From Escherichia coli (GTDB taxonomy: Bacteria; Pseudomonadota; Gammaproteobacteria; Enterobacterales; Enterobacteriaceae), in assembly GCF_003334785.1 (NCBI RefSeq), contig NZ_QOWV01000002.1: a DNA stretch of 64,000 nt; one strand, given 5' to 3'. The number at the start of each line of letters is the position of its first letter. Position 1 is the first letter of the stretch. A model generated the notes under the pieces. It was not told the DNA's origin and did no database searches. It saw nothing but the letters and a program-made list of their open reading frames with translations. Of this stretch, positions 29,454 to 34,593 are shown in pieces. The position numbers were made by a program, and so were the translations under genes.

Positions 29454-30353
29454 TTAACGCAATAATGGACAATCCGGTGGTAATCGACAACGCAACGCCG
29501 CCGGAAGTATTTCAATATGGAAGTTTTGCCCACTCAACGGTTCGCCATCAAGATTAAAAGTGATTTCGTGTGGGGCTTGTATATCAAACCACGACGAAGC
29601 GCCTTCGATAATATTCGGGTTATCTTCGTCAGATTTTAAGGTTGATACGAGAGCCGGAAGAATTTCATCGCCGGTAAAAATGCGCAGTTGCAGCAAGCCA
29701 TCGTTAATTAACGCGTTCGGACACAATTGCTGACCGCCACCGGCCTGACGCCCGTTACCAATACCAATGACCAGGGCGTCACCTTGCCAGTGAAAGTTTT
29801 CACCGCGGATTTCACAACGGTCCGGTTGCAGAGTATCCATGCGCATTAAGCCATGAATGATGTAAGAGACGCCACCCAGCGCGGCTTTTAATTTTTCCGG
29901 CGTTTCTGTGGTAATACGCGTCCCAAATCCGCCTGTCACCATATTAATAAAACAGGTTTGTTTGTTGACCTGCGCCATATCTATCGCAATGGCGTTACCG
30001 GCAATTGCCAGTTTCAGCGCCTTATCCAGTGCCTCAGGAATCCCTACACTGGTGGCAAAATCATTGGCGGTTCCTAATGGCAAAATTCCCAGCGCGGGTA
30101 TGTCATCCCCCTCACACTGAATCAACGCCGTAGAAACTTCATTAATGGTGCCATCGCCACCACCGGCAATCACCGTTGCGACGCCCAACTTCCGGGCCTC
30201 CTCTACATATCGTGCGGCATCGCCTTTCTCCCAGGTGACCCGCACATGGATCGTCATTCCTTCCTCACGCAACAGCATAATTGCTTCGCGCAAGGGTAAA
30301 TTGTCAGTACTTTTGCCATTAAGAATCAGTAAGCTGGCGGGAAATTCTGCCAT
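29454..30353 (-). CDS. yegS: lipid kinase YegS (DAGK-catalytic family)
   Basis: [32 protein letters not shown]..., GGDGT motif; start trimmed to the internal ATG at 30351-30353. Confidence 0.85.
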
Positions 30354-30757
30354 GATCGTATGTGCCTTTATGATTGGTCTGTAGATAGTGTAGAGCAGAA
30401 AACAAAAGGTGGAGTCAGAACAGGATGAAAGTCGGAGGATAAAAGTCAGTTCAAGTATGGAGGATTCAGTGGTTACCACCAGGAGCTTGCAATGGGGACA
30501 GCGAATACTAACGGCAGCCACCGATAAATTTCAAAAAAGAGAATATACCTAATATTCAACTAAACGGTGGCATCTTCAATATAATATATTAAAGCCCTCA
30601 TGGAGTTACCCGGAAGGGCCTCCATGTTCGTAATTCCTACTTATGTAGGAAATGTTTTACAGAACATTTATTATAATCCTATTCAATTATAATAATCATG
30701 CCATTATTATATTTAAACACTAGAGAGTGTCGTTGGTATTTAATGGGGGAAGGTGAG

Positions 30758-31075
30758 ATGAAAAAGATAGCTGCTATATCATTAATTAGTATTTTTATTA
30801 TGTCTGGTTGTGCTGTGCATAATGATGAGACAAGTATCGGTAAATTTGGTCTTGCATATAAAAGTAATATTCAGCGTAAACTCGATAACCAATACTACAC
30901 CGAAGCCGAAGCTTCTTTAGCCAGGGGCAGAATATCTGGTGCAGAAAATATAGTAAAAAATGATGCAACTCATTTCTGTGTTACTCAGGGCAAAAAAATG
31001 CAAATAGTTGAGCTGAAGACAGAAGGTGTAGGATTACATGGTGTCGCTCGTCTGACATTCAAATGTGGAGAGTGA
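30758..31075 (+). CDS. yegR: small lipoprotein (105 aa)
   Basis: MKKIAAISLISIFIMSGC lipobox; AAGGTGAG Shine-Dalgarno before ATG 30758. Confidence 0.6.
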   Translation: MKKIAAISLISIFIMSGCAVHNDETSIGKFGLAYKSNIQRKLDNQYYTEAEASLARGRISGAENIVKNDATHFCVTQGKKMQIVELKTEGVGLHGVARLTFKCGE

Positions 31076-31234
31076 GAATATTTTTTGGTAAGCGTCAAAT
31101 ATGCGCGTTCTGGCTGTGCGTAGCCGGAACCTGTGGGAGCACGATGCCGATAAGTGAAAGGCATCGTGCTATGAAGGAGGATTCTATCGATGTGGTCAAT
31201 GGAAGACGGTTACCAGAGATAGGGCTTATGCATA

Positions 31235-31261
31235 AAAAAATAAGCCCGTGTAAGGGAGATT
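31235..31261. repeat. attL core (27 bp)
   Basis: AAAAAATAAGCCCGTGTAAGGGAGATT, identical to 61589-61615. Confidence 0.85.
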
Positions 31262-31340
31262 TAGGGTGTCACCAGTAGGGGCTTTCAACGGTACAATGCG
31301 GGTTTGAGCGGCATAAATTACCACTGAAAGCCCTTAAACG

Positions 31341-32354
31341 TTACTCTACTGTGGACACTGTGTGGACACTCTCGGCCTCAGTACCACCTCTTAGCGGATT
31401 AAGAGAAATGGCGTCCTGAAGGTACTCTGGCGCAAAATGAGCGTAAACCATAGTTTGCTCAATCCGCGTGTGACCTAGTATCCGTTGTAGCGTGATAATA
31501 CTTCCTCCATTAATCATGAAATGAGTGGCAAAGCTGTGCCTTAGTGCATGTGTGGCTTGCCCCATTGGCAAATCCGGTTTTATTGCTTTCATTGTTCGTC
31601 TGAAGCGAGGGTAATCAGCATCAGGGAATAAAAAACCTCGTTTGTTATCCGCGATCATTTTGGCAACAGCCTCTGAGATCGGGACGGTGCGTGGTTTGTT
31701 TGTTTTCGTTTTAACAAACGTGACGCGGTTATGGATGATATTTTCTGCTTTCAAACGAGCTGCTTCTCCCCAACGTGCTCCAGTACTCAGGCAAAGAATC
31801 GCAATCTTTTTGTTGTCGCCGTCAAGAGCAGCAAGCAGTAAGGCAATTTCTTCCTGCGTGAGATAGCCTGTGTCTGGTTTTTCCTCCTTAAGCCTTTTTG
31901 TCCCTCTGATAGGGTGCTCACCAAAGAATAACTCCGCTTCAATCAGGGCTGTAAACATGCCGCTAATACATGTTAAATCACGATTGATACTCGAAGGTTT
32001 AATACCCTGACTTCTTCGGGTGGCGCAGTACTGGCTGATAAGCGATTTCGTAATTTGAAATGCGCATGGGTCATTCGTTATTTTTGTGAAGATTTCAATT
32101 TTTCCAAGATTAGATTTCCCATGCTCTTCGTGTTTACCCTTTAAATCCCACCAGATCTGTGTCAGCTCCGACAGACGTCGCTTGTCTGTTGGTTTTGATA
32201 GCCATTCTTTATTGTGGTGGTTGTACAACGTGTATTTCTCGAAAGCGACAGCTTCGCTTTTCTTATCAAACTTCCTACGGATGCGTTTTCCATTACGTCC
32301 AGTAGGGCGGATGTCCACTTCATATCGACCATCATCGAGTTTTTTGATTGCCAT
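31341..32354 (-). CDS. int: phage P2-type tyrosine integrase
   Basis: 337 aa, MAIKKLDDGRYEVDIRPTGRNGKRIRRKFDKKSEAVAFEKYTLYNHH..., C-terminal catalytic HxxR...Y region. Confidence 0.95.
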   Translation of the reverse strand: MAIKKLDDGRYEVDIRPTGRNGKRIRRKFDKKSEAVAFEKYTLYNHHNKEWLSKPTDKRRLSELTQIWWDLKGKHEEHGKSNLGKIEIFTKITNDPCAFQITKSLISQYCATRRSQGIKPSSINRDLTCISGMFTALIEAELFFGEHPIRGTKRLKEEKPDTGYLTQEEIALLLAALDGDNKKIAILCLSTGARWGEAARLKAENIIHNRVTFVKTKTNKPRTVPISEAVAKMIADNKRGFLFPDADYPRFRRTMKAIKPDLPMGQATHALRHSFATHFMINGGSIITLQRILGHTRIEQTMVYAHFAPEYLQDAISLNPLRGGTEAESVHTVSTVE

Positions 32355-32883: not shown

Positions 32884-33030
32884 ATGAGCAAGCAAGTAAC
32901 ACTCATGACTGATGCGATTCCTTATCAGGAGTTCGCAAAACTAATAGGAAAATCGACATGAAGTGGTTTACTGAATTTGGCCACCTGAACAGAGGTGATA
33001 TGCTCACCTCAGAACAACACAGGTGCCATA

Positions 33031-34178
<1,148 letters not shown>

Positions 34179-34398
34179 CTCGGTGGCCAGTTTTTGTTGA
34201 CCACTTCAACAGGAGCGGTTCGTCGGATGATCGATAAAGGAAAGCTGCCTGTAATTGATATGACCGATCCACAATCAGCTTCAGGTCGTGCAGGTGAATA
34301 TTGGGTATACCTTCCGGCATGGAATAACGGACTAAAACTGGCTTATGAAAGCCGCCCTAAAGAGATTCGTGACGGCTGGTTGATGTGGTTAGGTCTCG

Positions 34399-34593
34399 GT
34401 GAACCACGTTAAGGAGAACCGTATGAATGAGCCTCGTTGTATTGCTCAGTTACTGCGTAACGAAAGCCCCAGGGCGATTGACTTCACCATCACCCACGGT
34501 AAGGGGCGTAAGGGAATCATTATCCGCACCAAAAAACAGAGTCCGTTAAAAAAGGCTCTGACCTTTCTGAAAAGCCGGAGGGTATGGAAATGA
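34399..34593 (+). CDS. small hypothetical ORF between cox and B (P2 orf78 position)
   Basis: 64-aa ORF overlapping the cox 3' end and the B start; no independent support. Confidence 0.3.
   Translation: MNHVKENRMNEPRCIAQLLRNESPRAIDFTITHGKGRKGIIIRTKKQSPLKKALTFLKSRRVWK

Follow-up and report, generated by a model that had tools for sequence, protein, structure and literature searches.

In the 64,000-nt stretch of Escherichia coli DNA analysed here (the window), a resident P2-type prophage occupies positions 31235-61615 and is integrated at the E. coli site locI, between yegR and yegQ/trhP. To its left lie yegS (minus strand; the coding region ends at 30353) and yegR (30758-31075, plus strand), a small lipoprotein-like orphan gene, while yegQ/trhP begins at 61760 on the right (minus strand). 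The prophage is bounded by two identical copies of the 27-bp P2 core, AAAAAATAAGCCCGTGTAAGGGAGATT, which matches the attP core annotated in P2: the attL core at 31235-31261 and the attR core at 61589-61615 (both plus strand). The attR core is also the 3′ half of the terminator of cyaR (ryeE), the small RNA gene that serves as the integration target (61592-61677, minus strand). The match of this gene to Rfam family RF00112 is full-length (100.7 bits, E 9.6e-21), with the 27-bp core overlapping its 3′ terminator, and an Rfam scan of the attL side gave no match. ryeE is named as a known phage target in a passage of PMC3603311 that cites Wassarman 2001. The same core, with 0-3 substitutions, follows yegQ at a distance of ~147 nt in almost all of the 80 enterobacterial species that we sampled. 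It varies by taxon, reading AAGCCTGTG in ST131 (L004, position 766; L numbers denote the loci compared) and AAGCC(C/T)GCG in most other genera, with the stem of the cyaR terminator changed. Among the loci compared, only the Kluyvera core and the usual E. coli core agree with that of P2 at every position.

Inward from the attL core lies the P′ arm (31262-31375, plus strand) with the Cox-binding region (~31278-31351), the coordinates of both being transferred from the P2 annotation, and with two direct Int repeats, TGTGGACACT, at 31350-31359 and 31361-31370 (plus strand). The int gene (31341-32354, minus strand) is a 337-aa open reading frame for a P2-type tyrosine integrase, and integrase is also the annotation at the orthologous position of L002, L007 and P2. 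The C repressor gene comes next. In the region 32950-34412, an IS3-family element with an IS911-like orfA (32995-33333) and orfB (33360-34178) interrupts cox, and after it only the C-terminal ~70 codons of Cox are present (34194-34412). The resident prophage is probably defective for excision and for the lytic switch.

At the right end, the last prophage gene is ogr (61268-61486, plus strand), which lies 3′ of D and is 97-99% identical in DNA to ogr of P2 and other Peduovirus members. It is followed by a rho-independent terminator hairpin (61497-61520, plus strand), recognized as an inverted repeat and annotated as a terminator in P2, and directly afterwards by the P-arm Int binding site, TCGATGTGGTCAATGTGTGGACGTGACC (61526-61553, plus strand), and the IHF site (61557-61590, plus strand), both located through the P2 reference annotation (NC_001895). 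The order in that annotation is terminator, ‘protein_bind Int, P arm’, ‘IHF’, ‘Int, attP core’, ‘Cox’ and ‘Int, P′ arm’, and the attR side likewise has its IHF site between the Int site and the core. The Int P-arm site of P2 was reportedly the subject of footprinting work by Yu and Haggard-Ljungquist in 1993. In P2-type phages, direct repeats with the consensus tgTGGaCa flank the core (Nilsson and Haggard-Ljungquist, PMC3448106); the attR copy has two such direct repeats, TGTGGTC at 61530 and TGTGGAC at 61541, 11 nt apart. The site is predicted to be bound by the N-terminal domain of Int, and, following the mechanism described for P2, it would build the recombination complex together with an IHF bend before the core.

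The repeated 15-mer and the putative host-side P arm

The exact 15-mer TCGATGTGGTCAATG occurs at 31187-31201, on the bacterial side of the attL core, and at 61526-61540, within the prophage (both plus strand). These are the same two identical copies that a preliminary description of this DNA had noted; they are the only ones in the window, and none were added when up to two mismatches were allowed. The description placed them ~35 bp outside the attL core and ~50 bp before the attR core, and the measured gaps are 33 nt and 48 nt, respectively. It also pointed to a TGTGG(T/A)C motif inside the 15-mer and to a candidate integrase arm-type site. Both copies indeed contain aTGTGGtCA, which fits the arm consensus, and the phage copy forms the beginning of the ‘Int, P arm’ site annotated in P2, taking up 15 of its 28 nt; this is the site with the two tgTGGaCa-type repeats. 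Following the 15-mer on the phage side is TGTGGACG, and then the attR core. In P2-like prophages of Citrobacter spp. and of a Buttiauxella metagenome-assembled genome, which carry the same core, the 15-mer is exact and its 48-nt spacing is kept, and other P-arm positions differ. On this sequence conservation, the 15-mer is a conserved functional block of living phages.

The simplest account of the repeat would be coincidence without common origin. By calculation, a few random 15-mer repeats are expected across the whole 64-kb window, and 2 of 100 shuffles gave at least two matches at up to two mismatches. However, only ~1e-5 chance matches are expected between the two short flanks concerned (159 nt and 102 nt, same strand), where the copies share orientation and lie at a similar distance from the core. 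In addition, local alignment of the yegR-core and ogr-core spacers extends over 41 nt at ~80% identity with a score of 21, compared with a mean of 8.1 (sd 1.3) and a maximum of 15 in 2000 shuffles. The match continues in register directly 3′ of the 15-mer as GT(T/G)ACCAGA(G/A)ATA, and it is collinear up to the core; taken alone, this downstream part (GT.ACCAGA.ATA) is matched equally well in 55 of 5000 shuffles. No similarity between the host flank and the phage arm was detected 5′ of the 15-mer by local alignment. On the shuffles and the collinearity we rejected a chance origin, to which we give next to no probability, in agreement with the earlier judgement that a match in two such short flanks is hardly accidental.

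We then compared the host flank with the P arms of P2, of the window, of K-12-type remnants and of prophages of other genera, together with several candidate fossils. The preliminary description had proposed that an alignment would reveal whether the host flank resembles P2 att arms any further, and it does: between the 15-mer and the core, the common version of this flank in E. coli (‘form A’) follows the P arm collinearly over its whole length. The putative fossil P arm extends over 31185-31234 (plus strand) and matches the resident P arm over 41 nt at 80.5% identity by Blastn. Its 15-mer at 31187-31201 corresponds to the first Int arm-type repeat, TGTGGTCA, which is intact. The second repeat is mutated (GGAAGAC vs. 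TGTGGAC), its position reading GGAAGACG, so that the host copy has a single repeat where the P2-type Int arm site has two; indeed, only one TGTGGNC motif exists in 30354-31234. Further towards the core, the GTGACCAG block is kept, being exact and phage-identical in most E. coli alleles and reading GTTACCAG in this window, and ~16 nt are deleted from the IHF block, leaving the host copy without the IHF site that separates Int site and core in the phage. The bases adjoining the core are TTATGCAT in the fossil vs. TTACGCGT in the phage. In addition, a perfect 8-bp inverted repeat, GGGCTTAT and ATAAGCCC (31222-31229 and 31240-31247), has one half at the end of the host flank and the other in the left portion of the core, at the position of the IHF block in the phage.

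The flank is not peculiar to this lysogen. Joining the two flanks of the window through a single core yields a product with 100% identity to an unoccupied site in NZ_CP024127.1, and unoccupied sites of this kind are found in 4567 of 5426 complete E. coli genomes. The 103 nt from hairpin to core, including the 15-mer, are present in 5273 of the 5426 (97%). Since the flank is found in nearly all genomes and at empty sites, the host copy does not derive from the resident prophage. A recent transfer by recombination or gene conversion, from this prophage or from a K-12-type ogrK remnant, would account for the complete identity of the copies over 15 nt. Nevertheless, identity falls directly outside the conserved blocks, and 15 nt is too short for homologous exchange. 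With the flank at empty sites and in 97% of genomes, we rejected copying from either source as scarcely conceivable.

Between yegR and the putative fossil P arm there is a perfect 11-bp hairpin (31138-31170, plus strand), an inverted repeat in a place corresponding to that of the ogr terminator. Most E. coli alleles have the 10-11-nt right end of the core, (T)AAGGGAGATT, 3 nt 5′ of the 15-mer, preceded by a hairpin (L003; L004, 700-712; L005; L006; L007), and the window has a degenerate AAGGAGGATT in its place (31174-31183). By shuffles, p is ~0.01 for (T)AAGGGAGATT, and 8 of 506 real-sequence controls reach 10 and none reach 11. This element may represent a second, internal core fossil, marginally beyond chance.

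The differences between fossil and phage are clustered: a 7-nt block with one match lies between blocks that are identical at 15/15 and 8/8 positions, a pattern that uniform neutral decay does not predict. The state of the source phage, a single mutational event or selection may each explain the clustering in the second repeat. Selection would apply if the host copy were kept because it still works as an arm-type Int site, for instance by aiding Int capture or integration at locI, or by altering excision from attL. Apart from the clustering, the perfect first repeat (TGTGGTCA with its flanks) speaks for this, as does the invariance of 23 nt, TCGATGTGGTCAATGGAAGACGG, across the six alleles read, next to positions that vary. 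On the other hand, with the low divergence within the species, selection is not required to keep 15-23 bases unchanged; two parts of a functional P arm, the second repeat and the IHF site, are destroyed; and one E. coli allele (L008, see below) is without the 15-mer and yet keeps a usable core. As far as the sequence allows us to judge, continued function of the host copy is therefore unlikely.

The yegS-cyaR interval, yegR and other enterobacteria

In 37 of the 80 sampled species, including Klebsiella, Raoultella, Kosakonia, Trabulsiella odontotermitis and C. sedlakii, the start of yegS lies 73-145 nt from the core in the cyaR terminator, and neither yegR nor the 15-mer is present in between. 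The corresponding distance in E. coli is 881 nt. Given the short spacing in the 37 species, the E. coli interval of ~800 bp is an insertion at the P2 core. Homology of the outgroups to the DNA upstream of yegS ends at ~30436, and a MAFFT alignment places the core of the outgroups opposite window positions 30441-30467.

The sequence at this boundary resembles an attL. When 30400-30760 was aligned with the core and P′ arm of the resident attL, 30441-30495 (plus strand) matched 31236-31291, that is, from the start of the core, as a decayed core (17/27) followed by P′-arm-like sequence. The score of 18 was not reached in any of 1000 mononucleotide shuffles, the maximum among 162 real-sequence controls was 14, and dinucleotide shuffles gave a mean of 9.6 (sd 1.3; 0/1000 reach 18; z = 6.5). 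The same element has z = 4.3 in L002 and z = 1.9 in L008, the latter being weak when taken alone; in L008, TAAGAGAGATTCAGGG (14/16) still spans the core/P′ junction in the corresponding place. Hence 30441-31234 reads as a fossil attL, yegR and a fossil P arm, followed by the live core, which are the expected remains of a deleted P2-type prophage, and we consider this assignment probable. A tblastn search with all open reading frames of the resident prophage gave only noise for phage coding homology inside 30441-31234.

These data also bear on the direction of transfer. Through aberrant excision, an ancestor of P2 could have acquired the E. coli flank as its P arm, the host copy being the original; such excision at attL would indeed put B-arm DNA at the place of the P arm, and similarity alone gives no direction. 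Against this, the same 15-mer and spacing are found in the Citrobacter and Buttiauxella prophages, unoccupied sites of other genera do not have the 15-mer, and the motif is an arm consensus that is also repeated in the P′ arm. Furthermore, the E. coli flank is an insertion relative to the 37 species, with an attL-like fossil at its far end, and it is the host copy whose second repeat and IHF block are defective. We thus regard the reverse direction as very improbable.

Comparable P-arm fossils or remnants, independent of the form A flank, also speak for the remnant. The E. coli-labelled variant allele L008 (‘form B’) is without the 15-mer and keeps the IHF part, with 49 nt at 78% identity to the resident P arm; read as the reverse complement, this allele diverges from the common flank after ...CCTGTGCGA, ~150 nt left of the core. 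The existence of form B points to integration and decay having taken place at the cyaR site at least twice in succession. P-arm-like flanks also stand beside cyaR in E. albertii, where the flank is cut by an IS-like sequence, in S. enterica arizonae, without ogr and with yegS 1.9 kb away, and in C. amalonaticus, with a partial ogr. In Kluyvera (L032, L037, L051 and L082), a different small island ends a few bases left of the same core, which implies that the cyaR 3′ end is used by other elements too; an open reading frame of this island, ending in ...LTLSKAPH*, resembles an antitoxin-like helix-turn-helix gene. Searches for a living phage with a P arm of the host type returned only junctions with the host: Blastn against 50,697 phage records gave just two records, both with the host flank, and in an exact scan of IMG/VR all 80 loci examined were attL junctions with the host flank.

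Inside the proposed remnant lies yegR, which, as noted above, is missing from the yegS-cyaR spacer of the 37 species. A tblastn search of the 50,697 phage records found no YegR homologue other than in records that include the host flank. YegR does match PHROG 21109, a family of unknown function, and this match is probably a flank artefact. In a search of 5.8 billion proteins, YegR appears as an Escherichia orphan with two distant copies, one in an IS-rich island and one in another chromosomal context, neither of them P2-related. In Citrobacter P2-like prophages at cyaR, variable open reading frames of 201 aa and 63 aa (L055, 4338-4943; L047, 4287-4478) occupy a slot between ogr and the P arm, the same position as yegR has in E. 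coli. By analogy with this cargo slot, yegR may be former cargo that came in with the ancient phage, and we offer this as conjecture.

Two further observations concern the surroundings of yegR. In some E. coli lineages, namely ST131 and the host of vB_EcoM-720R8, an extra AT-rich segment of ~170 bp with a 41-codon open reading frame lies just after the yegR stop codon (L002, 2494-2665; L004, 430-600). In addition, the phage records ON470606.1 and AY639599.1 include host DNA (yegR, yegS and the gat repressor). Such host DNA in phage records, together with the PHROG family for YegR, represents prophage boundary overreach that contaminates phage protein families.

A proposed history for locI and comparison with known systems

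The reading that we favour, and consider likely, is that the host-side 15-mer is a decayed copy of the P arm of an older P2-type prophage at the cyaR terminator, of which a remnant of ~800 bp is left. An older P2-type insertion had already been proposed for the attB flank in the preliminary description; the collinearity with the P arm, the empty sites, the absence from outgroups, and the decayed core with P′ arm now argue for it. The sequence relationships, the distribution of the flank and the state of the outgroups are direct observations, from which we infer the following order of events. In an ancestor of E. coli, the cyaR terminator would have received an earlier P2-type phage, whose prophage would later have been cut by deletion to ~800 bp (30441-31234). 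Left over would be a decayed attL core and P′ arm by yegS, then yegR, and then a P arm in which the first repeat and the GTGACCAG block survived, with the second repeat mutated and most of the IHF site deleted. The right-hand core would have stayed perfect because it is part of cyaR; held in this way, it would remain a live attB for present-day P2 phages, and the distal core copy would be free to decay. The fossil arm itself is most likely inert, going by its defects.

If so, the ‘bacterial’ arm of a textbook P2 attachment site is old phage DNA, and the yegS-cyaR interval with yegR looks like an ancient P2-type remnant rather than native chromosome, which also proposes an origin for yegR. This has a bearing on the calling of prophage boundaries, as yegR is already in phage records and in a PHROG family. 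In evolutionary terms, a conserved sRNA terminator would preserve a live core while the DNA distal to it decays. It also raises the question of whether an arm-type site beside attB influences site choice or excision. A still-functional bacterial-side arm-type Int site at locI, contributing to the strong preference of P2 for locI or to poor excision of lysogens, combined with yegR, a gene that almost all E. coli carry, as domesticated cargo, would be an unlikely extension on present sequence grounds.

That remnants gather at integration hotspots in RNA genes is well known, and so is the P2 remnant of K-12 at locI. Two points appear to be new, provisionally, as the primary P2 att-site papers lie outside the literature checked: that the ‘bacterial’ arm of locI is a fossil P arm, and that a fossil attL marks the edge of the yegR interval.

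Measured against the P-arm site of P2 attP (NC_001895), the attR copy agrees in sequence, in position and in its distance from the core. What the host copy has in common with that site are the opening 15 nt, the GTGACC end and its orientation; it differs in having only one intact repeat, in the loss of ~16 nt of the IHF block, in lying 33 rather than 48 nt from the core, and in its position on the bacterial side of attL.

A cryptic P2 remnant of E. coli K-12 at locI (yegZ/D′, ogrK and attR) was reportedly described by Barreiro and Haggard-Ljungquist in 1992. In the K-12-type remnant that we compared (‘Phage TP’, AY639599; L001), next to the same flank comes a truncated core, to which the 3′ end of D is fused, and then ogr, the P arm, the core and cyaR. 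The left junction (L001, 320-345) lies inside the attL core, reading ...AAGCCCGTGTA up to the junction and GCAGAGTTC... beyond it, where the 3′ end of gene D is joined directly; by its sequence, this junction marks a deletion that starts inside the core and reaches into the prophage. Like the fossil, the K-12 remnant is P2-derived DNA beside cyaR after a large prophage deletion, with a live core kept. However, it is young (~97-99% identical to P2), retains coding sequence, is strain-specific, and lies between the form A flank and cyaR, that is, separate from and to the right of the fossil flank. The fossil, in contrast, is older and close to fixation in E. coli, shows no recognisable phage genes, and itself makes up the ‘bacterial’ arm.

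Degraded integrative elements are known to accrete at RNA genes, for example at the sdsR/ryeB locus (PMC3333887). Shared with such accretion at tRNA, tmRNA and sRNA genes are the target, namely the hairpin 3′ end of a small RNA gene for which the element supplies a replacement 3′ end, and the repeated use of the site, as a result of which decayed att copies and cargo remain distal to it. Unlike those examples, the fossil at locI keeps an arm-type accessory-protein site in addition to a core repeat, and the same phage family is still active there.
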